A DNA stretch of 64,000 nucleotides from a virus (IMGVR_UViG_3300031555_005217:7047-71046); one strand, 5' to 3'; counted from the first letter of the stretch, positions 31,291 through 47,912 are shown. Numbers and translations: made by a program. The notes: generated from the letters alone by a model not told the origin.

Positions 31291-31668
31291 ATGGGAATGT
31301 TTAAAAACACTCAAGGGATTACAAAGATTGTATTCCAACCAAAATTAGCAGCTCATTGTTTTTGCCCTTTAGGTGAGCTATACTGTAAAAAAGAGGCTGA
31401 AGGTACAGGTAAGAAACAAATGTTACCTCATTACACTAATCATTTTAAAATTACATTTATTCCAAATAAGTTAGTTTGTGATTATTGTGATATAGAGGAT
31501 TGGATTAGGGAAAATATCAATGATCAAACATTAATTATTGAAGATTGTGTTGATATGTTATTCAACCATATTAATACAACATATTCACCTGAATTTTTAA
31601 AGGTTGAATCATATGTACCTGACGCAGTTCATGGACCAGTAACAATTGAAAAGGAGACCATTTATTAA
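31291..31668 (+). CDS. QueF-like T-fold protein (QueF-L-type)
   Basis: HCFCPLG catalytic-Cys-like motif, FIPNKLVCDY, LIIEDC, PEFLKV; the QueF E(S/L)K(S/A)hK NADPH signature is not seen. Confidence 0.65.
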   Translation: MGMFKNTQGITKIVFQPKLAAHCFCPLGELYCKKEAEGTGKKQMLPHYTNHFKITFIPNKLVCDYCDIEDWIRENINDQTLIIEDCVDMLFNHINTTYSPEFLKVESYVPDAVHGPVTIEKETIY

Positions 31669-31672
31669 AATT

Positions 31673-32437
31673 ATGAAAAATCTAATACAAAAATTAAAAT
31701 CATTTAAAGCTAGTTCTTATATATTAGCAGTTACTATTTTCTATGCTATGGGCAGTTTACTAATTAATCTTATGGCAGTAAAAACAATGGGATATTATGA
31801 ACCTATTGATTTTGATAAAGGATTATTTGGTAACCCTATTATTCCAATTACCACAGCAGGAACTTGTATTTCTTGGTTAGTATTTGGAGCTATTGATGTA
31901 ATTACTGAAATTAGAGGTAAAAAAGGTGCCGTTCAAACTTTCTGGATTGTAGGTATACTAAATGTATTATTTACAGTTATTGCGGCATTAATTTGTTTTA
32001 TCCCTGGTAATCCTTGGACTAAAGATGCTTATGATGGAGTGTTTGGTGGTAACTGGGGTATTGCATTATCAAGTATTACCGCATTCTTAATTGGTAATTA
32101 TGTAAATGCTATTATATTCTATGTTATGAAGGTTAGAGATAAAGATCCAAAATCAGGTAAGAGTTTTACATTAAGAGTTATTGTATCAACACTAGTAGGT
32201 CAATTATTAGATAATGCTATTTTCTATATCGTGGCCTTAGCTCCTGGATTTGGAATTGGTGGAATTGTAAATCCTGCTGTAAGATGTGCAAACTGGGGTC
32301 ATTTATTTATGATAGTTGGATTTACTACAGCCATTGAATTAATAATAGAAACATTATTTAGTCCACTATTCCATAAATTCAGTCAATTTGTAATTAAGAA
32401 AAAAGAGCAAGAAGGAATTGAAGATATTTCATTATAA
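31673..32437 (+). CDS. yhhQ: YhhQ/VUT-family preQ0/preQ1 transporter
   Basis: DVITEIRGKKGA, SSITAFLIGNYVNAIIF, LRVIVSTLVGQLLDNAIF; multiple TM helices. Confidence 0.85.
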   Translation: MKNLIQKLKSFKASSYILAVTIFYAMGSLLINLMAVKTMGYYEPIDFDKGLFGNPIIPITTAGTCISWLVFGAIDVITEIRGKKGAVQTFWIVGILNVLFTVIAALICFIPGNPWTKDAYDGVFGGNWGIALSSITAFLIGNYVNAIIFYVMKVRDKDPKSGKSFTLRVIVSTLVGQLLDNAIFYIVALAPGFGIGGIVNPAVRCANWGHLFMIVGFTTAIELIIETLFSPLFHKFSQFVIKKKEQEGIEDISL

Positions 32438-32464
32438 AAAACAGGTAGAAATACCTGTTTTTAT
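32437..32464 (+). terminator. Intrinsic terminator
   Basis: AAAACAGGTA-gaaa-TACCTGTTTT followed by Ts. Confidence 0.8.
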
Positions 32465-32509
32465 TTTGATTAATTGTATATTATTTAAAATAAATAAGGA
32501 GTGATTAGT

Positions 32510-33061
32510 ATGAGTAAAGCCTTTAAAGTAGGTTTATATGTAGGTAGATTTCAACCAATGCATAGAGGGCATGAAAGTATAATTAGAAAAGCACTTAAAA
32601 TATGTGATATAGTAATAGTTGCTATTGGATCTAGTCAAGAAGAACATACCGAAAGAAATCCTTTTAGTGTAAGTTTGCGAGCTGAAATGATTAAAAAGAT
32701 ATTCAAACGTGAATATGAATGTCAATGTCTATATGTAATGGGTGTAAGAGATAGAGAAGATCCCGCAGATAATAGTGAATGGGGAGAGTATTTATTAGAT
32801 TCGGTTAAGATTGCAACTGGAGGTTTAGAACCAGATGTAATTATTGAAGGTTTTGAAACTACAAGAAGATCTTGGTTTTCCGAAAATTTATTATCACATG
32901 TGGTAATTAATAGAACTAATTTGCCTATATCAGGAACTCAGGTAAGAAAATATTTAGAAGATGATAATAGAACTGAATGGCGACATACAGTAAATAAAGT
33001 TATTTGGCCTTACTATGATAAGTTAAGGAAGGAATTAAAATTATGCGAAAAGAAAGAATAG
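32510..33061 (+). CDS. nadM: NadM-like NMN/NaMN adenylyltransferase
   Basis: YVGRFQPMHRGH (HxGH), IGSSQE...ERNPFS, ISGTQVR. Confidence 0.85.
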   Translation: MSKAFKVGLYVGRFQPMHRGHESIIRKALKICDIVIVAIGSSQEEHTERNPFSVSLRAEMIKKIFKREYECQCLYVMGVRDREDPADNSEWGEYLLDSVKIATGGLEPDVIIEGFETTRRSWFSENLLSHVVINRTNLPISGTQVRKYLEDDNRTEWRHTVNKVIWPYYDKLRKELKLCEKKE

Positions 33062-33822
33062 AACATTACGTAAATTATATAATTAAATTTATTAAAAATG
33101 AATTAGGTAAAGGTAAAGCAGTAATTGGTATTTCTGGTGGAAAAGATAGCACTATTACTGCAGCTTTATTATGTAAGGCATTGGGTCCTGAAAATGTAAT
33201 AGGTGTTATGATGCCTAATGGAGAACAATCTGATATTGAGGATTCAATTAAGGTTTTAAATTTTCTAGATATTCCAAGTGAAAACAGAAAGGTATTAAAT
33301 ATTGAAACTGCTTACCTTGCAACTATTAAGGAACTAGGCTTTAATACTAACACAGTTCCATCAATGATAAAAACTAATCTACCAGCAAGGTTAAGAATGG
33401 CAAATCTATATAACGTTGCAGCTTTATATCAAAATTCAAGGGTAATAAATACTTGTAACTTATCTGAAAATTATGTTGGTTATTCAACTAAGTTTGGTGA
33501 TCATGCTGGAGATACTGGAATATTGTATGATTTAACAGTTAAGGAATGTTTAGAAATTGGAGATTATTTAGGATTGCCTTATGATTTAGTCCATAAAAAA
33601 CCTTCTGATGGAATGTGTGGTAAGACTGATGAGGATAACTTAGGTTTTACCTATGAAGAGTTGGATAACTATATACTAAATAATGAAAAACCAAGTAATG
33701 ATAAATTAGAAAAAATTGAGAAGCTACATACAAATAATTTACATAAACTTAACCCAATGCCTTATCCAAGTAGAATGTTAATGGAATTAGATTACTTAAG
33801 TAGTGTAGCAGATGAATTATAG
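33043..33822 (+). CDS. nadE: NH3-dependent NAD synthetase
   Basis: IGISGGKDS, NLPARLRM..LY, NLSENYVGYSTKFGD, KKPSDG, DEDNLGFTY. Confidence 0.92.
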   Translation: MRKERIEHYVNYIIKFIKNELGKGKAVIGISGGKDSTITAALLCKALGPENVIGVMMPNGEQSDIEDSIKVLNFLDIPSENRKVLNIETAYLATIKELGFNTNTVPSMIKTNLPARLRMANLYNVAALYQNSRVINTCNLSENYVGYSTKFGDHAGDTGILYDLTVKECLEIGDYLGLPYDLVHKKPSDGMCGKTDEDNLGFTYEELDNYILNNEKPSNDKLEKIEKLHTNNLHKLNPMPYPSRMLMELDYLSSVADEL

Positions 33823-34771
33823 AAGAGAATATATTGAATATTTAAGATTGTGGCATCCTATCAGAGAATATGTTAAGGTATGGTTAGATGGTGATAAACT
33901 TAATATTACAGTAGAAGGACCTATGTTCCAATGTATGCAATTTGAAATTTATTTACTAGAAATTATTTCTCAAGCATATAATACTATAGTAGGAGATATT
34001 CCACAAATTAATATGAGTGGTATTGAAAAATTAAAAGAAAAAGTAAATGCTATTAATTCAGGTAAATATACTTTTAACTTTGCTGAATTTGGAGCTAGAA
34101 GACGTGCATCAGCTGAGTTACAACATAAAGCAGTTGAAATGCTAGCTGAAACTGGTAAATGTGTTGGAACTAGTAATGTTTACTTAGCAATGATTTTAGG
34201 CTTAAAACCTATTGGTACTTATGCACATGAATTTGTTCAAATGTATCAAGGTATTAAAGGAATGTCATTAGCATATACTAATAAGTATGCATTAGAAGAT
34301 TGGTTTGACGTATTTAATGGAGATAATGGTACAGCTTTAACTGATACATTATCAACAGATATATTCTTATTGGATTTTGATAAGAAACAAGCAACAATGT
34401 ATACTGGTGTTAGACATGATAGTGGTGATCCTTTTGTATGGGGAGAAAAAATATTAGCACATTATGAAAAATTAGGAATTGATCCAAAAACAAAGACTTT
34501 ATTATTTAGTGATAGTCTAAATTTTGATAAAGCTCAAGAAATTTATGAATATTTCAAAGATAGATGTAAAGTATCATTTGGAATTGGAACATTTATTAGT
34601 AATGATACTTGTCAACCAGCATTAAATATTGTTGTTAAATTACAATATGTAAATGGAAATCCTGTAGCTAAAATTTCAGATGTACTTGGCAAGACAATGT
34701 GCCAAGATAATTCCTACTTAGCACACTTAAAAGAGGCAGTTCAATATAGATTAGAAAGTGAAGGTAAGTAA
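33812..34771 (+). CDS. pncB: Nicotinate phosphoribosyltransferase, N-terminally shortened
   Basis: EFGARRR, GTSNV, GTYAHE, RHDSGDP, FSDSL, FGIGT, AKISD; lacks the N-terminal TDxYK segment. Confidence 0.85.
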   Translation: MNYRREYIEYLRLWHPIREYVKVWLDGDKLNITVEGPMFQCMQFEIYLLEIISQAYNTIVGDIPQINMSGIEKLKEKVNAINSGKYTFNFAEFGARRRASAELQHKAVEMLAETGKCVGTSNVYLAMILGLKPIGTYAHEFVQMYQGIKGMSLAYTNKYALEDWFDVFNGDNGTALTDTLSTDIFLLDFDKKQATMYTGVRHDSGDPFVWGEKILAHYEKLGIDPKTKTLLFSDSLNFDKAQEIYEYFKDRCKVSFGIGTFISNDTCQPALNIVVKLQYVNGNPVAKISDVLGKTMCQDNSYLAHLKEAVQYRLESEGK

Positions 34772-34772
34772 T

Positions 34773-35336
34773 ATGCAAAGAAATGTAACTTTAACTTTAA
34801 TTATTGATGCTCAAAAAGATTTCGTATATGATGTTTTAGGTTCTAAGGAAGCACAAAATTGTATTCCAGGTCTAGTTCAATTTATCAAAGAAGAAGAATC
34901 TTGTGGATCTTGTGTAATATTTACAAGAGATACTCATTCTAATAATTATATGAATACTAGAGAAGGAAAATATCTTCCAGTTCCTCATTGTATTGAAAAT
35001 ACTGAAGGTTGGAAAGTATGTGATGAATTATTAAATGCATCTATCACTAAATATCAGGTTAATAAACCTTCATTTGGAATGACTCAAGAAAGATGGAGAG
35101 AAGTGTTATATGAACATTTCTATTTTCTAAGTGATGTCCAAGAAATTAAATTAGTAGGTTTCTGTACAGATATTTGTGTAATTAGCAATGCTTTAAGTTT
35201 AAAGGCAATGTTTCCTGAGGCAAACGTTACAGTATATGAAGATTTATGTGCAGGAGTAACACCACAAAAACATGAAGCTGCTTTAGAAGTAATGAGAAGT
35301 TGCCAAATTAATGTTGAGAAGTACTTTAATAATTAA
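34773..35336 (+). CDS. pncA: Nicotinamidase (isochorismatase family)
   Basis: IIDAQKDF, TRDTH, PHC, KPSFG, GFCTDICV. Confidence 0.9.
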   Translation: MQRNVTLTLIIDAQKDFVYDVLGSKEAQNCIPGLVQFIKEEESCGSCVIFTRDTHSNNYMNTREGKYLPVPHCIENTEGWKVCDELLNASITKYQVNKPSFGMTQERWREVLYEHFYFLSDVQEIKLVGFCTDICVISNALSLKAMFPEANVTVYEDLCAGVTPQKHEAALEVMRSCQINVEKYFNN

Positions 35337-35345
35337 TAATAAATA

Positions 35346-35369
35346 AAAAGAGGATTAAATCCTCTTTTT
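35346..35369. terminator. Bidirectional terminator between pncA and the convergent late gene
   Basis: AAAAGAGGATT-A-AATCCTCTTTT inverted repeat flanked by A and T runs. Confidence 0.75.
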
Positions 35370-36500
35370 AATATGCAGCTACAAGAATTTTTTCTTCGCT
35401 ATAGAAATTTAATTGAACTTTCTTAGTGTTAAATTTATTTATTAATTCCATTAAATTCGTTATTAAATTTATATAATCAAACGATATCTCATTTTTATTA
35501 AACGCATCCTTTATAAAATCTATTTTTACTTTATTATTTGTTTTTATTATATCAAAATAAGTTTTTAAATTAAATAAATTTTTATTTGTTATAAGTTTAT
35601 CACTTAAATTTCTATTATTAAATTTTATATCTGAAGGAATTTTAATTATTTCTGGAAGTCAGATTTCTCTTAAAGCCTGTTTTATAATATAATCAGGAAT
35701 ATCATTTTTTACAATATATTCTCCTTCATCGGCCGTAAATTGATTACATAATTCATCTGCAAATTTAGGATTTAAATAAATATGAAGTCTAAATCTATCT
35801 GAAACTTTATACTCAGGATCATCTTTATGCTTTTTTCATTCTTCATAATTATTTAAATCATCTTTTTTTACTGTTAAAGATGGAGATGAAATTATTCCTT
35901 TATTATCTTGATAAAAATAATAAGATTTAAGATTAATTATTTCATCTTGATACTTTTCATTCCAACCTGAAGATTTATTTAACTTAAATTTTTGTCTTAG
36001 AATTGGAAAAGAATCAAATTCTAACATTTTTTCAACTAAATAAGTATATAATTCTTTTGAAATTTTAAATAATCCAGGTCAATTGTATACTTGTAAATAG
36101 TAGTTTCCATCTTCACCTTCTCCTACTCTATGTATTCTGGTATAACCTTTTCCTTTTTCTTGTCCTGTCAGATATTTTGAAAACTGATTTATGGAGATTA
36201 TTTCATTTCCTACTTTTTTAACATAATCTTCTACTAAATTAAAATCTAAATTAATTGCACAAGAAAATTTATTTGAATTTCTTATTATAGTTCCAGGAAT
36301 ATCATCTTTATTTTCTATGAATTGATTTGTAAATGAAACTGTACCTTTTCTTCCTTTTTTAATCCTGTTTTAAATATATTAGCTAAATCCTGCATACTTC
36401 TTGTAGCATGACTAAGCACTGTATCTTTAGCTGTAATTTTTACTCATTCATTAATTTCTAGTTGATTTAATTCTTTAATAGCTTCCAATAAAGTATTCAT
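35368..36500 (-). CDS. Late gene with ART-like motifs, interrupted by a -1 frameshift at A_AAA_AAG (about 377 aa when shifted; 4 TGA)
   Basis: GAGG SD and ATG 36500; LSHATRS..LANIFKTGLKK then -1 frame GRKGTVSFT...DEGEYIV; zero frame stops at TAG 36315-36317. Confidence 0.6.
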
Positions 36501-36531
36501 ATAAACCTCTTTTTAATTTTTATTCTTATAT

Positions 36532-36571
36532 AATTTAGCTATTTTTAATTATTTTAATCTATTAATTGTAT
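36532..36571. promoter_or_regulatory. Back-to-back promoters: GCTAAATT (minus, 36532-36539) and ATTGTAT (plus, 36565-36571)
   Basis: Both recurrent motifs sit in the 100-bp divergent intergenic region. Confidence 0.6.
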
Positions 36572-36601
36572 TATATAATAAATTGAAAATGAGGTGTTTG
36601 T

Positions 36602-37801
36602 ATGGATTATAAAGGAGTTAAAATACCTAAGAAGGTAATTATTGTATCTAAACCAAAAACGTGGTGGTTTAATTATCGTACTGAAGAAGTATATAGTAGA
36701 TACGATGATTGTTCACCTGCTTATGTAGTAGATCCTGATAGTAAAGGAATGTTAGATAGTGCTTTAAGTTGGTCAAGATCACAATCAATTAAATTAGATG
36801 AAAATAATAAACCTGTTGAATACATTAATCAATGGAATAGAAAAGAATATGAATATGAAGTAGTAGATGGTATTCAATATGAATATGATAATAATGGTTG
36901 CTTTGAATTTGAATTAGAAGATAGTGCTAATGGTTCTTGTCAAGGTGGAAAATTATCTTTCTGGAATTGTAAAATAACTGGACCAGATGGTAAGCAATTC
37001 CTAATTGGAATTAATTCAGATATCTTATTAAATCTATTAAAACATAATACTTTTGTAAATGGTAAATGTCAAAGTAAAGTATATCTAGGTAGAATAAAAG
37101 GTAATGCTGTAGGAGCATTTACTGAAAATATGGAATTATTTGAACAAGCAAAACATGATGATACCATAAGAAATGCTTCTAAAAGTAAAAAATACGTTCC
37201 AGGTGATATAGTTAGAACTAAAACAGAAACATTTGTTTATGTTGGAGAAATTTATAAAACTTTTGAAACTTTTGGTTATAAAACAAGTAATTGGAATTAT
37301 CGTGATTCAATAGATACAATCCACTTATTTGATAAGCCTAAGAAATATCACATGTATATTCACTTATATTCTCATTCTAATTTTGACAAGGAAGATAATA
37401 TAATTGATATTGAAAAAGGTAGTATTCGTTTATTAGAAAATAAACAATCTTACATCCTATGTAATAAACATATTGATGTATTAAGTCCATATGAACAATA
37501 TCTAGAATGTAATGAAGAAAATATTAGATCCTCTAGTGATAAAGAGTATTATAGAATTAAGAAAGAAATTTCAATGTATCAATTCTCTAATACACAAAAT
37601 ACCAACTTGAATAAGGAAATATTAGAGAAGGTTATAAATAAGGATATCATTAAAAATTCCAATATCTTAAGAAATTATACATGCTCATTTTATCGTAATT
37701 ATCGTGATATTGATAATTGGACAGATTTATCAGTATTAAATGATAGTGAAGTGGAATTAATAAAAGAAAAATATAAAGATTATAATCGATGGGAGTATTA
37801 A
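36602..37801 (+). CDS. Hypothetical protein (399 aa; 8 Trp, all TGG)
   Basis: Track ORF with GAGGTG SD. Confidence 0.75.
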   Translation: MDYKGVKIPKKVIIVSKPKTWWFNYRTEEVYSRYDDCSPAYVVDPDSKGMLDSALSWSRSQSIKLDENNKPVEYINQWNRKEYEYEVVDGIQYEYDNNGCFEFELEDSANGSCQGGKLSFWNCKITGPDGKQFLIGINSDILLNLLKHNTFVNGKCQSKVYLGRIKGNAVGAFTENMELFEQAKHDDTIRNASKSKKYVPGDIVRTKTETFVYVGEIYKTFETFGYKTSNWNYRDSIDTIHLFDKPKKYHMYIHLYSHSNFDKEDNIIDIEKGSIRLLENKQSYILCNKHIDVLSPYEQYLECNEENIRSSSDKEYYRIKKEISMYQFSNTQNTNLNKEILEKVINKDIIKNSNILRNYTCSFYRNYRDIDNWTDLSVLNDSEVELIKEKYKDYNRWEY

Positions 37802-37806
37802 TTACA

Positions 37807-37998
37807 ATGAAGATTTATGTAGTGGTATTAAAAGGTTATCATATCTATGAAAAAGCATTTTTAAATAGAGAAGATGCCGAAAATTTTATTGCTCCAATGA
37901 ATGATGATTATCATAATTACGTTCAGAATTGTATAGATAATTATGAATCTTATTCAGATATTGGTGAATATGAAATTATTGAGGAAGAGGTGAATTAA
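37807..37998 (+). CDS. Small hypothetical protein
   Basis: GGGAG SD before ATG 37807. Confidence 0.55.
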   Translation: MKIYVVVLKGYHIYEKAFLNREDAENFIAPMNDDYHNYVQNCIDNYESYSDIGEYEIIEEEVN

Positions 37999-38001
37999 TA
38001 T

Positions 38002-39060
38002 ATGACATTACAAGAGATTAAAGAAATGTTAAAAACAGAAGCATATGACTTCTTAAGAACTGATAAACATTTGGGAAATAGAATTATGTTTTTATGTTTA
38101 GGTGGTTCTCATAGTTATGGTACTAACATTGAAACATCAGATGTAGATATTAGAGGTGTAACTTTAGATACTACTGAATGTGTTTTAGGACTAGAACATT
38201 TCGAACAAAGATTAGATGCAACTACTGATACCACAATTTATAGTTTAAGTAAATTCTTAGATTTGGTTAGCAATTGCAATCCTAATATTATTGAAATGTT
38301 ATTTTGTAAACCAGAACATTATTTATATGTAAGTCCTTTAGGTCAAATCCTATTAGATAATAGACATTTATTCTTAACTAAGAGAGCTTATCATACATTT
38401 GGTGGATACGCTCATGCACAATTAAATAGATTAGAAAATGCAATGGCTAGAGATAACGAGGCATTGACTGAGGAAGAAGTTCAAACTCATATTTCTAGAT
38501 CTTTAAAGAATTGTCTTCAAAATTGTATTGAAAAATTTGAATTTAATGAAGATCAATTTAAGATTTATGTAGATAAATATGATAAGAATTATAATAAGCA
38601 ACAAGATAAGCTAGGTACATTTGGTATCTTTATGGATGCAACATTTGAAAAATTACCTGTCGCAGAATTCAATTCATTACTGTTGGAATTAAGTCAAGTA
38701 GTAAGAGATTTTAATTCAAGTGTTGGTCAACGTAATAAAAAGAAGGATGATATTCACCTTCAGAAGCATATGATGCATTTAATTCGTTTGTATATTATGT
38801 GTAATGAAATCTTAACTACAGGTGATTTACATACATATCGTGAGAATGAACATGAATTATTAATGAATATTAGAAATGGTAAATATAGAAGTGAAGATGG
38901 TAAGGTAACTCCTGAATTCTATGAAATGTTACATAAGTTAGAAACTGAATCTAAATCAGGTTATGATAATTCCAAGTTACCTAAAACAGTTGATAAGAAA
39001 CAAATTTATGATAAAATTATTAAACCTATTTATTCACAAACATTATTTAAGGAGGAATAG
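38002..39060 (+). CDS. Pol-beta-type nucleotidyltransferase (RlaP/Nuc-transf-like)
   Basis: GGSHSYGTNIETSDVDIRGV, NPNIIEML, KHMMHLIRL. Confidence 0.85.
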   Translation: MTLQEIKEMLKTEAYDFLRTDKHLGNRIMFLCLGGSHSYGTNIETSDVDIRGVTLDTTECVLGLEHFEQRLDATTDTTIYSLSKFLDLVSNCNPNIIEMLFCKPEHYLYVSPLGQILLDNRHLFLTKRAYHTFGGYAHAQLNRLENAMARDNEALTEEEVQTHISRSLKNCLQNCIEKFEFNEDQFKIYVDKYDKNYNKQQDKLGTFGIFMDATFEKLPVAEFNSLLLELSQVVRDFNSSVGQRNKKKDDIHLQKHMMHLIRLYIMCNEILTTGDLHTYRENEHELLMNIRNGKYRSEDGKVTPEFYEMLHKLETESKSGYDNSKLPKTVDKKQIYDKIIKPIYSQTLFKEE

Positions 39061-39062
39061 TT

Positions 39063-39842
39063 ATGGAAACAGATGCTTTAGGAACTAGAATGAAGGAATA
39101 TGAATTTGTTCCTAGAAATTATTTATTAAGAAGAACACCAGTAATTATTAGAATTGATGGAAAAGCTTTTCATACATTTACTAGAGGTTTAAATAGACCT
39201 TTTGATAAGACTTTTCAAAAATGTATGGTTGAGACTGTTAAATATTTATGTGCAAATGTTCAAAATTGTGTATTAGGTTATACTCAATCTGATGAAATTA
39301 CATTAGTTTTATTAGATGATTTCAAATTGAATACCTCTCCATATTTTGATAATCAGGTTGAAAAGATTTGTTCAATAACAGCATCAATGGCAACCTTAGC
39401 GTTCAACCAAGCAATTTATAATGAATTGGAATCTGGTTTTACTGAAGGAGATCCATCATATGATGTATGGAAACAAAAACTTTTCAAAGCACAATTTGAT
39501 AGTAGATGTTTTAATGTTCCTAATCGAACTGAAGTATATAACTGTTTAGTTTGGAGACAACAAGATGCTATTAAGAATAGTATTACAATGTTAGCTTTAT
39601 CACATTTCAGTAATAAACAATTACATAAGAAAAATGGTAAAGAAAAAATTACTATGTTAGAAGAAATTGGTGTTAGGTGGAATGAATTAGATAACATTGA
39701 TAAACAAGGAATTATTATTAAAAAAGTATATTATGATAAGAATGGAGCTTTAAGAAGTAAATGGGAAGAAGATGTAAACACTCCTGTTTTTACTAAGGAT
39801 CCTGATTATATTATGAAATTATTAAACAAAGAAGGTGAATAA
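39063..39842 (+). CDS. Thg1-like tRNA-His guanylyltransferase / 3'-5' RNA polymerase
   Basis: IRIDGKAFHTFT, GYTQSDEIT, FDSRCF, WRQQDA..NS. Confidence 0.92.
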   Translation: METDALGTRMKEYEFVPRNYLLRRTPVIIRIDGKAFHTFTRGLNRPFDKTFQKCMVETVKYLCANVQNCVLGYTQSDEITLVLLDDFKLNTSPYFDNQVEKICSITASMATLAFNQAIYNELESGFTEGDPSYDVWKQKLFKAQFDSRCFNVPNRTEVYNCLVWRQQDAIKNSITMLALSHFSNKQLHKKNGKEKITMLEEIGVRWNELDNIDKQGIIIKKVYYDKNGALRSKWEEDVNTPVFTKDPDYIMKLLNKEGE

Positions 39843-39843
39843 A

Positions 39844-40275
39844 ATGATTTCAGTTAACGTACATCAAGATATGATTACCGCAATGAAAAATAAAGATAAA
39901 TTAAAGAAAGATGTCTTATCTTTACTTTATAGTAAGTTAAAAAATAAATCAATTGAACTAAAGCAATTACCTTTAGAAGATAATGAATCAACAAAAATTG
40001 TTCAAAAATTTATTAAAGAACTAGATGATGAAATTGTATTAAATATTAAAGTAAATAGAATTGAAGCCGCAAATAATTTAAAATTACAAAAAGAAGTCGT
40101 TTCTTCATATTTACCTAAAATGTTATCTGAAGATGAAATTAGAAATGAAATTGAAAAATTAACAGATAAATCTATTCCATCTATTATGAAACATTTTAAA
40201 GCAAATTTCAATGGAAAGGTTGATATGGGTTTAGTAAATAAAATTGCTAGAACTTATCAAGGAATGGAGAAATAA
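39844..40275 (+). CDS. GatB/YqeY domain protein
   Basis: AMKNKDK, LKNKSIE, YLPKMLSEDEI, GKVDMGLV. Confidence 0.85.
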   Translation: MISVNVHQDMITAMKNKDKLKKDVLSLLYSKLKNKSIELKQLPLEDNESTKIVQKFIKELDDEIVLNIKVNRIEAANNLKLQKEVVSSYLPKMLSEDEIRNEIEKLTDKSIPSIMKHFKANFNGKVDMGLVNKIARTYQGMEK

Positions 40276-40276
40276 T

Positions 40277-41635
40277 ATGAATTTTAAAATCCCTAAAAAC
40301 ATTCAACAAGTATTAGATATTTTACATAAGAATAATTTCGAAGCATACCTTGTTGGAGGTTGTGTTAGGGATTTTCTTATGAATATTGAACCTAAAGATT
40401 ATGATATTACTACTAATGCTTTACCTAATCAAATTAAAGAAGTATTTAAGGATTACAAATTAATTAATAATAATGGTGAAAAGCACGGAACTGTTACTGT
40501 TTTTATTGAGGAACCTATTGAAATAACTACCTATAGAGGAGAAACTACTTACTCAGATCATAGACATCCAGATGAGGTTATTTTTAAAACGGAATTAAAA
40601 GATGATTTAAGCAGAAGAGATTTTACAATTAATGCAATGGCTTATGATGGAAATAAGTTAGTAGATTTATTTCTAGGAGAAGATCACATTATTCTTTCAC
40701 AATTACATGCTGTAGGAGATCCAGATGAACGTTTCAAAGAAGATGCCTTAAGAATTCTGAGAGGTATTAGGTTTGCATCAAGATATAAAATGTCTATTGG
40801 CAAAAAAACATTGGAAGCAATGCATAAAAACAAATATTTATTAGATTTTATTTCTAAAGAACGTATTAGAACAGAGTTAAATAAAATGATTTCATATGAA
40901 TACTTTGCAGTTTTACTAGAGACTGAGGTAAGAGATATTATTTCTTATATTCTACCTGAAATAAGTGTTATGTTTGATTATGATCAAAGAAGTTTATATC
41001 ACACTAATGATTTATGGCATCATACTTTATCAACAATGTTCTCATTAAATACCTATAACTATATTGTTAAAGTTGCAGCTTTACTTCATGATGTAGGAAA
41101 ACCTTATGTGGCAACTGAATATGAAAAAGATGGTGTTATATTAAAACATTACATTGATCATGCGGAAAAATCATATGAAATTGCTACAGGAATTTTAGAT
41201 AGATTAAAATATTCTAATGAAGAGAAAGAAAAGATTTTATTCCTAATTAGATATCATGATTTTAATTTTTCTACAAAAAGATTAAACAGATCTATGAAAA
41301 AATTTATTCAGTTAATTCCTGAAAAATATAGAGATGAATTATTTGAACTATTTTTGGAATTAAAGTTTGCTGATAATAGAGATCATACTATTAATTTTCC
41401 AAAAGAAGTTATAGATGAATTAGAAACTGCCTATAACTCAATCATTAACACTGAAATTTGCTTTTCTTTAAAGCAATTAGCTATAAATGGTAATGATTTA
41501 TTAAAACTCGGTTATAATGGAGTTTTAATAGGAAAAATATTAAATGATTGTTTAAATAAAGTTATTGAAGAAATTTTAGAAAATAACAAAAATGTTTTAA
41601 TTACATATGTAAAAGATATGTATATATTAAATTAA
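40277..41635 (+). CDS. cca: CCA-adding tRNA nucleotidyltransferase with HD domain
   Basis: YLVGGCVRD, DYDITT, RRDFTINAMAY, EDALRILR, LHDVGKP. Confidence 0.92.
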   Translation: MNFKIPKNIQQVLDILHKNNFEAYLVGGCVRDFLMNIEPKDYDITTNALPNQIKEVFKDYKLINNNGEKHGTVTVFIEEPIEITTYRGETTYSDHRHPDEVIFKTELKDDLSRRDFTINAMAYDGNKLVDLFLGEDHIILSQLHAVGDPDERFKEDALRILRGIRFASRYKMSIGKKTLEAMHKNKYLLDFISKERIRTELNKMISYEYFAVLLETEVRDIISYILPEISVMFDYDQRSLYHTNDLWHHTLSTMFSLNTYNYIVKVAALLHDVGKPYVATEYEKDGVILKHYIDHAEKSYEIATGILDRLKYSNEEKEKILFLIRYHDFNFSTKRLNRSMKKFIQLIPEKYRDELFELFLELKFADNRDHTINFPKEVIDELETAYNSIINTEICFSLKQLAINGNDLLKLGYNGVLIGKILNDCLNKVIEEILENNKNVLITYVKDMYILN

Positions 41636-41671
41636 TTGTATAATAATTAATATTAAGTAAAGGAGAATAAT

Positions 41672-42313
41672 ATGTTAACAGAACAACAAATAGAGTTAAA
41701 TAAAAATGAATTTTTATCCTTAATTAATCAAATTAATATTCCTGGAGCAGATATTCAAGGATTAATTAAATTTTTAGAAGAAAGTGATTTCTTTTACGCT
41801 CCTGCTTCTACTAATTACCATTCAGCATATACAGGTGGATTATGTGAACATAGTTTAAATGTATATAGAACATTAACAAAATTAGTAGAAATGTTTAGTT
41901 ATCAAATTCCTAATTTAGATATGAATTCAGTATTAGTTGTAGGACTATTACATGATTTATCTAAAGTAAACTTCTATGAATCTTATATTAAAAATGAGAA
42001 AATTTATAATGAAAAAGGATTAAAATCTGATAATATGGGAAAGTTTGATTGGGTTGCTAAACAAGCTTTTAAAGTAAAAGAAGCTAAAAATAGATTTTTA
42101 TGTAAAGATCATGAAACAAATTCTATGATTTTAATCTCTAGATATATTCCTTTAAGTATGGAAGAAACAATAGCAATTCTTAATCATCATGGAGGATTAG
42201 GTGATACAAGTACTAATTGGGATTTAAGTCCTATTACTGATACAAATCCTTTATTATGTTTACTTCATGCGGCTGATTATATGAGCACATTTATTCTAGA
42301 AAATATGGAGTAA
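41672..42313 (+). CDS. HD-domain phosphohydrolase (YhaM-like)
   Basis: HSAYTGGLCEHSLNV, LLHDLSK, HHGG, LHAAD. Confidence 0.85.
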   Translation: MLTEQQIELNKNEFLSLINQINIPGADIQGLIKFLEESDFFYAPASTNYHSAYTGGLCEHSLNVYRTLTKLVEMFSYQIPNLDMNSVLVVGLLHDLSKVNFYESYIKNEKIYNEKGLKSDNMGKFDWVAKQAFKVKEAKNRFLCKDHETNSMILISRYIPLSMEETIAILNHHGGLGDTSTNWDLSPITDTNPLLCLLHAADYMSTFILENME

Positions 42314-42314
42314 A

Positions 42315-42680
42315 ATGAAAGATAATTTAAGTTTAATTGAAAAAGAACTTAAAAAAGTTAAATATGCAGACTTATCTACTTTTGATATTAATACTAATAC
42401 TTATTTTATTAAAAAGAGAAATGATATTAAAATTGAAGAAGATAAGTCTTATTTAATTTATCTAGAAGATTCTTTTTTTAATGATTTAGATTTAAAAATT
42501 AAATGGAATTCAAATTTATCGCCTAATTATAGATGTTTAAAAGTTGTTATTGATAAATTATATTTAGATATGGTTAAAATATCAGGTATAGCTTATGATT
42601 TAAATATGAATAAAGATATAGCCTATGTTTGGTCAGGTTGGTCACATTTAAATCAAATTAAAGTATTACAAAAATTATAG
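42315..42680 (+). CDS. Hypothetical protein
   Basis: Track ORF, coupled to the HD gene. Confidence 0.6.
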   Translation: MKDNLSLIEKELKKVKYADLSTFDINTNTYFIKKRNDIKIEEDKSYLIYLEDSFFNDLDLKIKWNSNLSPNYRCLKVVIDKLYLDMVKISGIAYDLNMNKDIAYVWSGWSHLNQIKVLQKL

Positions 42681-42723
42681 AATTGTATATTAAATTAAAT
42701 TTAAGTAGAAAGGAATTGATATA

Positions 42724-43776
42724 ATGGCACAATCACTTGCAGTCAAATATAGACCTAAAACATTTGAAGATACATTATCTCAAGGATCTGTTATTAAAAT
42801 TTTAAGAAGACAATTAGAATTAAAGCAATATACTAATTGTTATTTACTTTCAGGACCTTCAGGCTGTGGTAAAACAACATTAGCTCGTATATTTGGAAAT
42901 GAAATTAATCAAGGAAAAGGCAGTTTAATAGAAATTGATGGAGCTTCTAATAATGGAGTAGATGCTATTAGAACCATAATTGATGAAGCTAAAGAAAGAA
43001 GTATTGATAGTGAATATAAGATATTTATTATTGATGAATGTCATATGATTACTACTCAAGGCTGGAATGCATTCTTAAAATGTATTGAAGAACCTCCTAA
43101 ATATACTATATTTATGTTTTGTACAACAAATCCTGAAAAAGTTCCTGCAACTATTCAAAATAGAGTTATGAGACTTAATTTATCTAAAGTAAATATAAAT
43201 TTAATTAAAGATAGATTGCTTTATATATGTAAAAATGAAGGATTTACTAATTTTAATGAAGCTTGTGAATTTATTTCTAAATTAAGTTCTGGAGGAGTTA
43301 GAGATGCTATTTCTTTATTAGAAAAATGTGCTAATTATTCCACCGATTTAAATATAAATAATGTTTTAGAGTGTTTAGGTAATTTCTCTTATGATTTATT
43401 TTTCGATTTAACAAATGCTTTTGTTGATAGAAATCAAGGAGAGGTTTTAAATATCCTTCAAAGTTTTTATGATTCAGGAAAAGATTTAAAATTATTTGTA
43501 GATCAATATTTAGATTTTATATTAGATTTAAATAAATATTGCATATTTAAAAATATGATAAGCTTAAAAATACCTGCATCTTTAGAGGTGGTCAGATTTT
43601 CTAATGGAGATCCTAATCCAAGATGTGTTAAGTATGTAACTGGTATTGAAAATAATATAAATTATTTTAATATGCTCGTTAAACACATTTTAAATATGAA
43701 GAACATAATTAAGTATGATACTAATATTAAATCTACTATAGAAGCTTTAAGCATTCAAATTTGTGCTGGAATATAG
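42724..43776 (+). CDS. dnaX: Clamp loader DnaX (gamma/tau-like) ATPase
   Basis: LAVKYRPKTF, GPSGCGKTT, EIDGASNNGVDAIR, IIDECHM, LKCIEEPP, TIQNR. Confidence 0.92.
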   Translation: MAQSLAVKYRPKTFEDTLSQGSVIKILRRQLELKQYTNCYLLSGPSGCGKTTLARIFGNEINQGKGSLIEIDGASNNGVDAIRTIIDEAKERSIDSEYKIFIIDECHMITTQGWNAFLKCIEEPPKYTIFMFCTTNPEKVPATIQNRVMRLNLSKVNINLIKDRLLYICKNEGFTNFNEACEFISKLSSGGVRDAISLLEKCANYSTDLNINNVLECLGNFSYDLFFDLTNAFVDRNQGEVLNILQSFYDSGKDLKLFVDQYLDFILDLNKYCIFKNMISLKIPASLEVVRFSNGDPNPRCVKYVTGIENNINYFNMLVKHILNMKNIIKYDTNIKSTIEALSIQICAGI

Positions 43777-43794
43777 AGATAAGGATTTTAATTT

Positions 43795-44622
43795 ATGAAT
43801 AAAATATTAGGACAAGATAATTTATTAAATAAATTAAATAATTATGATTTAAATAACTTTCCTAGATCTTTATTATTAGTAGGAGATAGAGGAAGTGGAA
43901 AACATTTAATATCTAATTATATAAAAGAAAATATTTTAAATCTTCCTTTAATTGATATTACTGAAATAATTTCTTCTGAAGTTATTGATAATATTTATAT
44001 AAATCCAAATCCTTCTATATATTTAATTAATTTGTCTGATATTACAGAAAAAAGTCAAAATATACTATTAAAATTTATAGAAGAACCTTTAAGTAATGCT
44101 TATATTATTTTATTATGTGAATCTAAATTAAATGTTTTAAATACTATTTTAAATAGATGTGTAACTATTGAATTAGAATTATATACTAAAGATATTTTAA
44201 GTAATTTTATTTCAAATAATGAGAATAAGGAACTTATTCTAAATGTATTAAAGACTCCTGGAGATATTATAAATTCAAATTTAAGTAATATTGAAGAATT
44301 ATATGATTTATGTATTAAAATATGTGATAAAATAAATTCAGCTAATATTCTTAATTCATTATCTATATGTGATAAAATAAATTATAAAGATGAATATAGT
44401 AAATTTGACTTAAATTTATTTTTAGATGTTTTAGCATATTCATTAAATAAATACTATAAAGAAACTTTATGTTTAAAATATTTAAATATGTATTTAATAT
44501 TAATTGAAAATAGAAAAAAATTAATTGATAAAAGAATAAATAAAAGACTGTTTATGGAAAGTTTAATTATCAAACTTTGGAAAGGAAGTAGAGATAATGG
44601 ATATAATTCAATTAAAATCTAA
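43795..44622 (+). CDS. holB: Clamp loader delta-prime-like subunit
   Basis: Degenerate Walker A GDRGSGKH, QNILLKFIEEP, VLNTILNRC. Confidence 0.75.
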   Translation: MNKILGQDNLLNKLNNYDLNNFPRSLLLVGDRGSGKHLISNYIKENILNLPLIDITEIISSEVIDNIYINPNPSIYLINLSDITEKSQNILLKFIEEPLSNAYIILLCESKLNVLNTILNRCVTIELELYTKDILSNFISNNENKELILNVLKTPGDIINSNLSNIEELYDLCIKICDKINSANILNSLSICDKINYKDEYSKFDLNLFLDVLAYSLNKYYKETLCLKYLNMYLILIENRKKLIDKRINKRLFMESLIIKLWKGSRDNGYNSIKI

Positions 44623-45487
44623 AATAGAATCTAATTCTTTAGATGATTCTTTACTTATTTTAAAGTATTCTGATAATAAATTTTTATGTGAACATTATAT
44701 AGATAATATATCTAAAAATAAAAATTTAGAAAAAGTATATGTAAATTCTATAACTGATATATTTCAAAATAATTCATTCTTTGAAACTGAAGATAATTAT
44801 TTATATGTTTTAGATGTAGAAAAATTAACTGAATATCCTGATCAAACTTATAAAAATTTAATTATTTTATGTAAAGAATTACCTGATAATTTAACTGTTG
44901 ATTATGTAGAAGTCAATAAATTAATTAATTGGCAAATAGAAGATTATGTTAAAATGAGATTACAAGGTTTGGGAGAACAAGAAGTTGTTTGGTTATGTCA
45001 AATATGTAAATATGATATTTATAGATTAGATCAAGAATGTAAAAAGATAGAAATATTTCCTGTAGGAGCAAGAAATAATATATTTAACATTATAAATTCA
45101 GATAATGGATATTGTGATTTAACAGATAAAAATTTATTTGATTTTACTGATGCTGTTATAAGAAAAGATTTAGAGACTATAAATAATTTAATTCCAGATA
45201 TATTCGTTGTAGATATAGAACCTTTAGGAGCTGTAACAACTTTATTAAAGAAATTTAAACAAATATTAGCAATACAAACAAATTGTAAATCTGCTATAAC
45301 TTCTATGGGAATGAGTGATAAACAAGTTTGGTTTTTAAAGAATAATCAATGTAATATTTATAGTACAGATAAAATTATAGATATTATTGAGTTTTTAACT
45401 GATATAGATTTTAATTTAAAATCAGGTAATTTAGAATTAAGTAAAGAATCTTTTTTAGATTATTTAGTTGTTAATATGCTAAATTAA
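44597..45487 (+). CDS. holA: Clamp loader delta-like subunit
   Basis: LDQECKKIEIF, NLFDFTDAV, EPLGAVTTL, LTDIDFNLKSG; follows dnaX/holB. Confidence 0.7.
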   Translation: MDIIQLKSKIESNSLDDSLLILKYSDNKFLCEHYIDNISKNKNLEKVYVNSITDIFQNNSFFETEDNYLYVLDVEKLTEYPDQTYKNLIILCKELPDNLTVDYVEVNKLINWQIEDYVKMRLQGLGEQEVVWLCQICKYDIYRLDQECKKIEIFPVGARNNIFNIINSDNGYCDLTDKNLFDFTDAVIRKDLETINNLIPDIFVVDIEPLGAVTTLLKKFKQILAIQTNCKSAITSMGMSDKQVWFLKNNQCNIYSTDKIIDIIEFLTDIDFNLKSGNLELSKESFLDYLVVNMLN

Positions 45488-45523
45488 TACTGTATAATAT
45501 ATTTAGAAAGGAAATTGATTTAT

Positions 45524-47383: not shown

Positions 47384-47387
47384 TAAT

Positions 47388-47912
47388 ATGATTAAATTTT
47401 ATAAAGTAAGTTATCAACAATTTAAAGAGGATTTCTTAAATAGTGATTATAAGTATTTAAACTTAGAAGAGGAAGATATTAAGTTAATATATGAAAATAT
47501 TAAGTTACCAAAGAGAGCTACAAAAAATTCTGCAGGATATGATTTTTATCTTCCTACTGGAATCAAATTATTAAATAACCAAAGTGTTAAAATTCCAACA
47601 GGAATTAGATGTGAAATGGATCCTGAATCAGTATTAATGTTACTTCCTAGAAGTTCTTTAGGGTTTAAATATAGATTTTCTTTAGATAATACTTGTGGAG
47701 TTATTGATGCTGATTATTTCTCAGCTCTAAATGAAGGTCATATTCAAGCTAAAATCCATTTTTATAATGAAGATAATGAATATATTTACCTTGATGGTGA
47801 AAGTGCGTTTATGCAAGGTATTTTTATGAATTATTTAAAAACAGTAGATGATAATACAAATGAAGAGAGAACTGGTGGATTTGGTTCTACAAATAAAAAA
47901 GGTAATGAATAA
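47388..47912 (+). CDS. dut: Trimeric dUTPase
   Basis: SAGYDF, PTGI, PRSSLG, GVIDADY, RTGGFGST. Confidence 0.92.
   Translation: MIKFYKVSYQQFKEDFLNSDYKYLNLEEEDIKLIYENIKLPKRATKNSAGYDFYLPTGIKLLNNQSVKIPTGIRCEMDPESVLMLLPRSSLGFKYRFSLDNTCGVIDADYFSALNEGHIQAKIHFYNEDNEYIYLDGESAFMQGIFMNYLKTVDDNTNEERTGGFGSTNKKGNE

Follow-up and report, generated by a model that had tools for sequence, protein, structure and literature searches.

A probable phage-borne copy of a gut Bacillota nicotinamide-to-NAD+ operon with a 5'-truncated pncB

Three pathways by which phages restore NAD+ have been named. NARP1 (Adps and Namat) reuses ADP-ribose via ADPR-PP, NARP2 (Nampt/NadV and NMNAT; Vibrio phage KVP40; Osterman et al. 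2024) converts nicotinamide and PRPP to NAD+ in two amidated steps through NMN, and NARP3 (PnuC and NadR; PMC13464706) imports nicotinamide riboside. Preiss-Handler clusters (pncB-nadD-nadE, e.g. in Kuafu_71) have also been found in gut 'NAD-jumbo phages', where they were proposed to counter NAD+ depletion (Li et al., Microbiome 2024, PMC11662467), and viral pncA, pncB, nadM and nadE genes are listed in PMC13384950 and PMC12647753. The operon described here, at 32510-35336 on the + strand of a 64-kb stretch of phage DNA (hereafter the window), encodes a NadM-like adenylyltransferase, an NAD synthetase (NadE), a nicotinate phosphoribosyltransferase (PncB) and a nicotinamidase (PncA). A sequence-only reading had presented it as a strong candidate for an undescribed system and as a would-be third chemistry beside NARP1 and NARP2. 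Neither description survives, as the third named pathway is NARP3 and both phage Preiss-Handler clusters (PMC11662467) and the individual viral genes (PMC13384950, PMC12647753) are on record; most of what would make this a known phage cassette has been reported (PMC11662467). The advance is a modest one, as others have already published both the idea and the genes involved. What we add to the published surveys is a NadM-plus-PncA form of the cluster in a sub-jumbo phage, its probable origin in a bacterial salvage operon (with NrtR at its head in the locus checked), fused domains among relatives that settle the likely order of steps, and a lineage that may serve as a natural PncB 'knock-down' for comparison with intact sister cassettes.

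The operon resembles the NAD-jumbo clusters in that phage genes for a deamidated NAD+ route are grouped together in animal gut or rumen phages, and a counter-defence role may be suggested for both. It differs in having a NadM-type adenylyltransferase rather than NadD, and in including a nicotinamidase, so that the input here is nicotinamide rather than nicotinate. The NAD-jumbo limit is 200 kb, whereas the present record is 157 kb (88% complete), with an identical NadM also found on a 191.6 kb contig; the definition further calls for all genes of one NAD+ pathway, and here the gene families are complete but pncB is truncated. With NARP2 the operon shares the overall conversion of nicotinamide and PRPP to NAD+, as well as the pairing of a type II phosphoribosyltransferase with a HIGH-motif adenylyltransferase, but it would take four steps via nicotinate, NaMN and NaAD, and the single PF04095 gene in the genome is PncB-type, not Nampt (NadV). 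NARP1 and NARP3 are likewise phage-encoded means of NAD+ restoration. Unlike NARP1, this phage has no PRPS-like gene (no Pribosyltran_N match to indicate a PRPP synthetase in the 157 kb, 88% complete genome), and unlike NARP3 it has no match to PnuC (PF04973) in the same 157 kb and, as its sole adenylyltransferase, a protein of 183 aa that lacks a kinase domain. A second NAPRTase or Nampt, a PncC and an NAD+-dependent DNA ligase were also sought in this genome and not found; because the record is only 88% complete, such absences are not proof.

The four ORFs fill the interval in the order nadM-like gene, nadE, pncB, pncA, which is not the pathway order (PncA-PncB-NadM-NadE) under which they had been announced. 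They are tightly coupled, overlapping or abutting throughout: nadM and nadE share 19 nt, nadE and pncB share 11 nt, and a 1-nt gap separates pncB from pncA if ATG 34773 is the pncA start. At the 5' side, a hairpin terminator (32437..32462, + strand; 11-bp stem followed by a T run, found by terminator scan and by reading the sequence) closes the upstream unit, which consists of a gene for a 125-aa protein and a Vut_1 transporter gene, and marks the boundary of the NAD operon. The 125-aa protein belongs to no family found, and its sole PDB match is insignificant (E 0.087). A promoter-like motif, TTAATTGTAT (32470..32479, + strand), lies 31 nt before the ATG and is followed by an A/T-rich stretch and then by AAGGAG (32497-32502, + strand), read from the sequence as a ribosome-binding site. 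At the 3' side, a bidirectional hairpin terminator (35344..35370, without strand; 12-bp stem, terminator scan and sequence reading) separates pncA from a convergent minus-strand gene. That neighbour (35368-36369), considered as an NAD+-consuming ADP-ribosyltransferase, has no Pfam or PHROG match. The promoter-like motif and terminator attributed to the operon are both present, but the motif is a genome-wide one: T[AT]ATTGTAT[AT] occurs at 32 sites and is not peculiar to these genes. Twenty of the 32 sites lie 15-70 nt upstream of a start on the same strand (3.7% expected by position) and 25 of 32 are intergenic (12.9% expected), whereas the bare heptamer ATTGTAT is not over-represented (85 observed against ~103 expected from composition) and is informative solely through its position relative to gene starts.

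The source sequence is a phage, with genes for tail sheath, tail fibre, SbcC, a helicase and NrdD; its IMG/VR record spans 156.9 kb and is 88% complete, leaving ~12% of the genome missing. Across the whole genome TGA accounts for 145 of 489 Trp codons (30%). The statement that the operon contains no TGA was borne out: it has no in-frame TGA and 10 TGG, and it sits inside a TGA-free block (31291-47912) with 0 TGA against ~39 TGG.

The four enzyme assignments hold by Pfam and NCBIfam profiles, PDB matches and motifs. The first gene (32510..33061, + strand, 183 aa; PF01467, E 6.7e-14) encodes a CTP_transf_like, archaeal-type NMNAT by both Pfam and NCBIfam, although every one of the best NCBIfam models, all NMNAT models, scores below its cut-off. 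The best PDB matches are the archaeal NMNATs 1f9a and 1ej2, the HIGH-type motifs GRFQPxHxGH and ISxTxxR are present as GRFQPMHRGH and ISGTQVR, and the protein stands alone, with neither a Nudix nor a kinase domain. Archaeal-type NadM accepts both NMN and NaMN (PMC3376133), and this published bifunctionality, together with the domain fusions of relatives described below, suggests that the phage enzyme would use NaMN. The nadE gene (33043..33822, + strand, 259 aa; PF02540, E 1.2e-44) encodes a single-domain, NH3-type NAD synthetase that scores 154.9 bits against TIGR00552 (cut-off 63.65), has the PP-loop SGGKDS and lacks the glutaminase domain.

The pncA gene (34773..35336, + strand, 187 aa; PF00857, E 1.7e-22; 192 aa from an alternative GTG start at 34758) encodes an isochorismatase-fold hydrolase whose best PDB match is the P. 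horikoshii nicotinamidase 1ilw (E 2.4e-12). A metal site of the form Asp-x-His...His (PxHC motif) separates nicotinamidases from other isochorismatase-fold hydrolases. The phage protein has such a site, D58-T-H60 with P-V-P-H77-C aligning with D52/H54 and H71 of 1ilw, as well as the Asp-Lys-Cys triad (D17, K103, C146). All these residues are kept in nearly all of the 11 phage homologues encoded beside pncB, the departures being one divergent row and one N-truncated row. Against this assignment, the protein scores 26.8 bits with the NCBIfam nicotinamidase equivalog, far below the cut-off of 174.

The third gene, pncB (33812..34771, + strand; PF04095, E 1.2e-63), encodes a PncB-type rather than a Nampt/NadV-type enzyme, as a profile comparison proposed earlier had been meant to decide: it scores 327.9 bits against TIGR01514 (NAPRTase; cut-off 269.55), its best PDB matches are PncB structures (E 1e-19) with NAMPT matching weakly (1e-5), and its barrel domain keeps the phospho-His motif GTxAHE as GTYAHE. 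The N-terminal domain, however, is incomplete. The protein is 319 aa long, against 395-428 aa in relatives; what is missing is the first 77-98 residues, the conserved DxDxYK motif among them. It aligns to residues 81-393 of Y. pestis PncB (3os4), so that its start corresponds to residue 81, and it matches the NAPRTase_N profile only at positions 72-125. The N-terminal region is present in full in all 48 viral relatives whose N-terminus is on the contig (DxDxYK in most), which makes this the sole shortened copy in that comparison, and full length is also seen in virtually all of the 120 best homologues from the database. A detached N-terminal piece was not found in the 157 kb genome (88% complete). 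Four gene families of the pathway are thus present, but the pathway cannot be called complete without reservation, as had been stated, because pncB is 5'-truncated and without the DxDxYK region.

The junction between nadE and pncB suggests how the truncation arose. The last ~12 residues of NadE look pncB-derived: NadE runs 16 residues past its PMP motif, against 4-8 in most relatives, and the nadE frame reads ELDYLSS, a match to the E-L-D/N-Y-L-K/R-S motif of the PncB N-domain that full-length PncB relatives carry 6-9 residues before (D/E)Y(V/I)E(F/Y)LRLW. The pncB frame resumes 22 nt later. We consider 33784..33826 (+ strand) a probable deletion and frameshift scar; the evidence is suggestive, not proven. 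A deletion of ~0.25 kb in this phage lineage would have removed the first ~80+ pncB codons, including the tyrosine-bearing DxDxYK helix. In PncB the tyrosine of the N-terminal helix stacks on nicotinate from the partner subunit, and in human NaPRT the Y21A mutation leaves no activity when ATP is absent and half of it when ATP is present (PMC4442680). Because these N-terminal codons are deleted, the PncB step is probably weakened or left to the PncB of the host, the other three genes being intact. AlphaFold models point the same way, with a mean pLDDT of 69 for the truncated protein and 82 for a full-length relative at equal alignment depth, and with 47-58 against 85-90 in the residual N-domain.

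The truncated allele is not an assembly error of a single contig. The junction is identical in independent assemblies and fixed in at least 24 contigs from ~10 samples; these contigs hardly differ from one another, which may point to a recent event. In one further run (X7), a 90-95% relative covers nadM/nadE and mid-pncB but leaves 33511-34116 uncovered, for which reason it cannot be read as either an intact or a different junction. The remaining gene shows no decay: its 319 codons contain zero stops and zero frameshifts, its start codon overlaps the nadE stop in a way that suits coupled translation, all 144 columns invariant in nine relatives are kept in the retained part, and its branch in the PncB tree (0.29) is no longer than those of its sisters.

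A survey of phage genomes, which the earlier reading had called for, showed that the synteny recurs. All four genes lie within 8 kb at 14 of 49 IMG/VR PncB loci, 7 or 8 of them in the same order; another 14 loci have PncA, PncB and NadE, 10 have PncA and PncB, and PncA adjoins PncB in most of the 49. At one locus with the same order, on a 233 kb contig (L035), the cassette lies amid ThyA, DHFR, a DnaB-like helicase, a primase and a strong phage-only family. In the PncB tree this phage groups with L078 and L079 (support 100), and phage sequences cluster, with 5 label changes against ~30 in shuffles. L078, the closest relative, has a NadE that is 51% identical to that of this phage and is fused to a CinA/PncC-type domain (E 1.2e-44); in L079 NadM is fused to NadE. 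Two PncB matches labelled as phage were set aside: that of Acinetobacter phage MD-2021a (GenBank 'phage') has a plainly bacterial context, and that of Moraxella phage Mcat17 lies near the record end with no annotated feature.

Among bacteria, the full set of four is found at 13 of the 80 best genome loci, which come from Clostridia of rumen and gut and from one Bacilli MAG, mostly in the order pncA-nadE-nadM-pncB. Identity between bacterial and phage proteins is 60-67% for PncB and 35-51% for the others. In the one locus checked, in a Ruminococcus MAG (L111), an NrtR regulator precedes the cluster, which is flanked by AsnB, FeoB, VanW and MatE; the NrtR regulon is described in PMC2330246. The phage operon shares with the Clostridia operon the four gene families and the compact organization, and differs in gene order, in the absence of NrtR, in its phage promoter motif and in its truncated pncB. 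A word-based homologue search for NadM returned 9 matches, so no host inference was drawn from it.

Taken together, these observations make it probable that the operon is a phage-borne copy of a four-enzyme nicotinamide-to-NAD+ operon of gut or rumen Bacillota (Firmicutes), placed under a phage promoter within a TGA-free block and, in this lineage, truncated in pncB. On transfer, an NrtR-type regulator, present at the single host locus checked, would have been lost and a phage promoter put in its place, and the operon would have come to lie inside a gene block translatable without TGA decoding. PncA would deamidate nicotinamide to nicotinate, PncB would combine nicotinate with PRPP and ATP to give NaMN, the NadM-like enzyme would adenylate NaMN to NaAD, and NadE would convert NaAD to NAD+ with ammonia and ATP; the net outcome would be an increased or replenished NAD+ pool in the infected cell. 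The deamidating logic proposed earlier holds; substrate order, activity, expression timing and biological role we infer. The NadE::PncC and NadM::NadE fusions of relatives support the classical order NaMN, NaAD, NAD+, since joining an NMN deamidase to an enzyme that makes NMN would presumably amount to a futile cycle. Counted against the route is its cost, PRPP and three ATP-consuming steps in a phage without a PRPP synthetase of its own.

As to what the phage gains, we lean towards both escape from NAD+-degrading defences and general metabolic support. That the cassette is solely an auxiliary metabolic module, supplying NAD+ for replication, for NAD+-using phage enzymes or in salvage-lacking hosts with no link to immunity, is a tentative possibility. 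It would accord with a host-derived gene content equal to that of bacterial salvage operons, with the surroundings of the cassette in sister phages, which include genes for replication and nucleotide metabolism (ThyA and DHFR, for example), with NrdD, RNA-repair and tRNA-maintenance genes in the window and a NADAR gene elsewhere in the genome, and with the complementary phage and host pathways described in PMC11662467. However, the 88%-complete genome shows no NAD+-dependent DNA ligase, the neighbouring gene proposed to encode an ADP-ribosyltransferase matches no family, and the faithful retention of the nicotinamidase in particular would be left unexplained.

An anti-defence role for the cassette is plausible, but we regard it as somewhat unlikely that this is a dedicated anti-defence system, that is, a fourth reconstitution pathway turning the nicotinamide that SIR2, TIR, DSR or Thoeris-type NADases set free back into NAD+. 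Its input is the product of those defences, most of the 49 viral loci retain PncA beside PncB, and the TGA-free block and own promoter mean that the cassette could be made before suppressor-dependent genes; NARP1-3 establish NAD+ rebuilding as a proven phage strategy, and the same idea was raised in PMC11662467 and PMC13384950. Against this, bacteria of the clade that probably hosts the phage carry this gene set as an everyday salvage operon on the chromosome (with NrtR at its head in the one locus checked), the four-step route is slow and costly in PRPP and ATP, no recognised anti-defence gene was found beside the operon, and a truncated PncB tolerated and fixed across samples is hard to reconcile with strong selection for the full pathway. 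The literature searched contains no paper testing a deamidating route against an NADase defence and no activity, expression or phenotype data for any phage deamidating cassette. If the cassette does protect from NAD+-depleting immunity, it would be a fourth chemistry beside NARP1-3, and one found widely among uncultured Bacillota phages from gut and rumen.

It is unlikely that the operon is a decaying remnant, broken at PncB and being lost, whose intact-looking genes merely reflect a recent deletion. That this copy alone is truncated, when the 48 viral relatives and virtually all of the 120 best homologues have their full length, the scar-like junction, the near-identity of the carrying contigs and the weaker predicted fold would all suit such decay, but the nadM-like, nadE and pncA genes are undamaged, a PncB of the host could stand in, and the open frame, coupled start, conserved columns and ordinary branch length of pncB argue against it. 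The most ambitious version of the counter-defence idea, in which the cassette is a fourth pathway directed at NADases, the NadE::PncC and NadM::NadE fusions serve channelling and the 319-aa PncB is active as a minimal form, we consider doubtful.

Finally, a Francisella-type order, in which NadE would first turn NaMN into NMN as an NMN synthetase and the NadM-like enzyme would then convert NMN to NAD+, is very unlikely. In its favour, the F. tularensis route (Sorci et al. 2009, cited in PMC3376133) likewise pairs a NadM-type enzyme with a short single-domain NadE, NadM in place of NadD accompanies NMN synthetase there (PMC3376133), and Francisella NadE is the best solved relative of the phage protein (3fiu, 119.9 bits; next the P. 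horikoshii enzyme 2e18, 104.6 bits). Against it, the NadE of L078 carries a fused NMN deamidase domain of PncC type, as the classical order would predict, the 14 viral loci with PncA, PncB and NadE have no NadM within 8 kb and would need host NadD for NaAD, M. jannaschii NadE, which belongs to this short subfamily too, is a genuine NAD synthetase, and archaeal NadM is bifunctional (PMC3376133).

The NAD operon occupies 32510-35336 (+) as one four-gene unit, a real observation of the sequence-only reading, with the genes in the order nadM-nadE-pncB-pncA and not in the pathway order PncA-PncB-NadM-NadE listed there. It encodes a NadM-like adenylyltransferase (32510-33061), a single-domain NadE (33043-33822), PncB (33812-34771), and an isochorismatase-fold protein (from an ATG at 34773 or a GTG at 34758, to 35336). 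The junctions are overlaps of 19 nt and 11 nt and one 1-nt gap, each gene has a purine-rich ribosome-binding site, and hairpin terminators at 32437-32462 and 35344-35370 bound the unit on its 5' and 3' sides, confirming that it has its own terminator. The ATTGTAT motif assigned to the operon is also present (TTAATTGTAT, 32470-32479), but it is a general promoter-like upstream element of the whole phage: T[AT]ATTGTAT[AT] has 32 matches in the genome, 20 of them at 15-70 nt upstream of a start on the same strand (expected, 3.7%) and 25 between genes (expected, 12.9%), and it also occurs upstream of some tRNA genes.

The enzymatic reading of the four genes made from the sequence alone is right. 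PncB was distinguished from NadV by a score above the NAPRTase equivalog cut-off (327.9 vs 269.55 bits), a retained GTYAHE phospho-histidine motif, and structure matches that are far better to PncB than to NAMPT. The NadM-like protein, with motifs GRFQPMHRGH and ISGTQVR, best matches archaeal NMNATs, and NadE has the PP-loop SGGKDS and no glutaminase domain. The isochorismatase-fold protein scores far under the cut-off of the NCBIfam nicotinamidase model, so we read it as the nicotinamidase PncA from motifs and gene context. Among solved structures, its best match is the P. horikoshii nicotinamidase (E 2.4e-12). Eleven phage homologs, whose genes nearly always adjoin pncB, nearly all keep the catalytic residues D17, K103, and C146 and the metal-binding D58, H60, and H77 (PVPHC).

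Known phage NAD+ reconstitution pathways are NARP1 (ADPR-PP synthetase and Namat) and NARP2 (Nampt and NMNAT), as previously noted, along with NARP3 (PnuC and NadR); the NARP1-3 papers do not mention phage PncA, PncB, or NadE, and Iyer et al. give the amidated set only (PMC7824862). Nevertheless, the claim of an undescribed system fails, as Li et al. have published complete salvage or Preiss-Handler pathways in 174 of 668 gut jumbo phages, with clustered pncB-nadD-nadE and mention of phage pncA (PMC11662467), and viral pncB, nadM, nadD, nadE, and pncA have been listed (PMC13384950, PMC12647753). Those clusters use a nadD adenylyltransferase, whereas the window cassette has a NadM-like one. As a role, Li et al. 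suggest that these pathways offset NAD+ depletion, an idea "needing experimental verification" (PMC11662467). For the window, an anti-defense system that would counter NAD+ loss is a reasonable hypothesis; plain metabolic support of the infected cell would be a competing explanation. PncB is rare in GenBank phages (14 of 50,697 records), where partial cassettes occur in huge phages, faecal phages, and Atu_ph07. Two "Acinetobacter phage MD-2021a" PncB records were rejected as phage for their plainly bacterial context. One of these, the 133 kb contig CAKLQH020000008.1, has pncB between serB, psd, phoBR, and similar genes, and looks like a bacterial chromosome filed as phage. A Moraxella PncB match lies near the record end, without an annotated feature.

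The NAD cassette recurs in phages as a module. Of 49 IMG/VR loci retrieved by PncB profile, 14 have all four genes within 8 kb, in the window's order in 7 or 8 cases; a further 14 have PncA, PncB, and NadE, and 10 have PncA with PncB. One of the loci with this order, on a contig of 233 kb, neighbors ThyA, DHFR, a DnaB-like helicase, primase, SSB, and a strong phage-only family. The cassettes of the two closest PncB relatives, L078 and L079 (76% and 73% identity), adjoin RlaP and DUF5662 genes, as in the window, and each carries a fusion. In L078 (5902-7098), NadE is fused with a CinA/PncC-type domain (PF02540, E 1e-50; PF02464, E 1e-44), PncC being an NMN deamidase; no description of such a fusion was found in the literature searched. 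In L079 (1429-2889), on a 334.7 kb phage-like contig, a 486-aa NadM::NadE fusion precedes a 695-aa protein without known family, then PncB and PncA. The Francisella order of the last two steps, with NadE as an NMN synthetase, draws on NadE's best solved relative, the Francisella NMN synthetase (119.9 vs 104.6 bits for P. horikoshii), but the two fusions favor the classical order NaMN, NaAD, NAD+. Archaeal-type NadM takes NMN and NaMN alike, and the short NadE of archaea is a genuine NAD synthetase (PMC3376133).

Among cellular PncBs, the nearest (60-67% identity) are those of Clostridia from rumen and gut and of one Bacilli MAG, and 13 of the 80 best cellular loci have all four genes, mostly as pncA-nadE-nadM-pncB. 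In a Ruminococcus MAG (L111:5061-8969), nrtR-pncA-nadE-nadM-pncB forms one chromosomal operon with ordinary chromosomal genes on either side; the salvage operon of rumen Clostridia therefore appears to include an adenylyltransferase of NadM type, not NadD type. In the PncB tree (a quick search with midpoint root and several long viral branches), phage sequences fall in a few clades next to Clostridia (5 label changes vs ~30 in shuffles), and the window sequence joins, with full support, the two relatives that carry fusions. These gene clusters and the tree point to a host salvage operon that phages captured and have long carried; whereas the Ruminococcus operon is NrtR-headed, the phage copy lacks this regulator and has its own gene order.

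The operon had been called complete; all four gene families are present, but pncB is N-terminally truncated. Its product aligns with residues 81-393 of Y. pestis PncB and covers only positions 72-125 of the N-domain profile. Essentially all of the 120 best database homologs (identity up to 77%) are full-length, mostly 395-428 aa, and the 48 viral relatives with the N-terminus on the contig all extend 72-210 residues further at this end, most with a DxDxYK motif. Alignment with nine relatives shows 83 missing columns, 38 of them conserved at 8/9 identity or better. Neither a detached N-terminal piece nor a second NAPRTase-family gene was found in the genome record, a single 156.9 kb IMG/VR contig (25% G+C) of 88% estimated completeness. 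The end of NadE (…MELDYLSS…), which is ~8-12 residues longer than in most relatives, resembles the PncB N-domain motif that stands 6-9 residues before (D/E)Y(V/I)E(F/Y)LRLW, one frame off. A deletion and frameshift that joined nadE to the pncB interior, leaving this end as a scar, is thus suggested, though not proven. Assembly error is ruled out, because Logan contigs of runs not flagged as the source (X5 record 10, X6 record 19) bridge the junction without difference, and the identical 319-aa product is encoded on 24 or more contigs from some ten samples. The retained part shows no sign of decay: all 144 columns invariant in nine relatives are kept, and in the tree its branch length (0.29) does not exceed that of its sisters.

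Human NaPRT has its active site at the dimer interface, where helix 1 of the partner subunit completes it, with Y21 stacking on nicotinate; the Y21A mutant is inactive in the absence of ATP and has half the activity when ATP is present (PMC4442680). Another role of the N-domain is to cover the open barrel (PMC4432964). With alignment depth matched, AlphaFold assigned the truncated PncB a mean pLDDT of 69 (47-58 over the residual N-domain) and a full-length relative 82 (79-93 over its N-domain), a hint rather than a measurement of a weaker fold. The loss may cripple step 2 of the pathway in this lineage, or leave that step to host PncB.

The identical NadM protein occurs on at least 17 contigs, the longest of 191,569 bp; therefore, a longer, perhaps complete, assembly of the phage is present in public data. 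Another contig has an identical nadM, but its nadE, cut off by the contig end after 270 nt (L077:4534-4803), shows 39 differences; this contig may be recombinant, or may continue from there into a related strain.

The phage encodes a tail sheath, tail fibers, SbcC, an SNF2-type helicase, and NrdD, and most gaps of its ORF map close once TGA is read as Trp. TGA makes up 30% of Trp codons genome-wide; the operon, as claimed, has none (10 TGG), nor does the block containing it (31291-47912, +; ~39 TGG). The partition is sharp, with the 20.5-31.2 kb genes just upstream using almost only TGA. Other genes in the block encode RlaP, Thg1-like, YqeY, CCA-adding enzyme, HD, clamp-loader, and topoisomerase proteins. 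The convergent gene at 35368-36512 (-), which has no match in Pfam or PHROG, requires TGA decoding and lies in two frames, with stretches of 65 aa and 333 aa. Directly upstream of the operon, a two-gene unit (31291-32437) with its own TTGTAT-type motif and terminator encodes a 125-aa protein without family and a Vut_1/YhhQ-type transporter, which scores above the cut-off of TIGR00697 (queuosine-precursor transporter); this unit probably goes with the phage 7-deazaguanine genes, not NAD metabolism.
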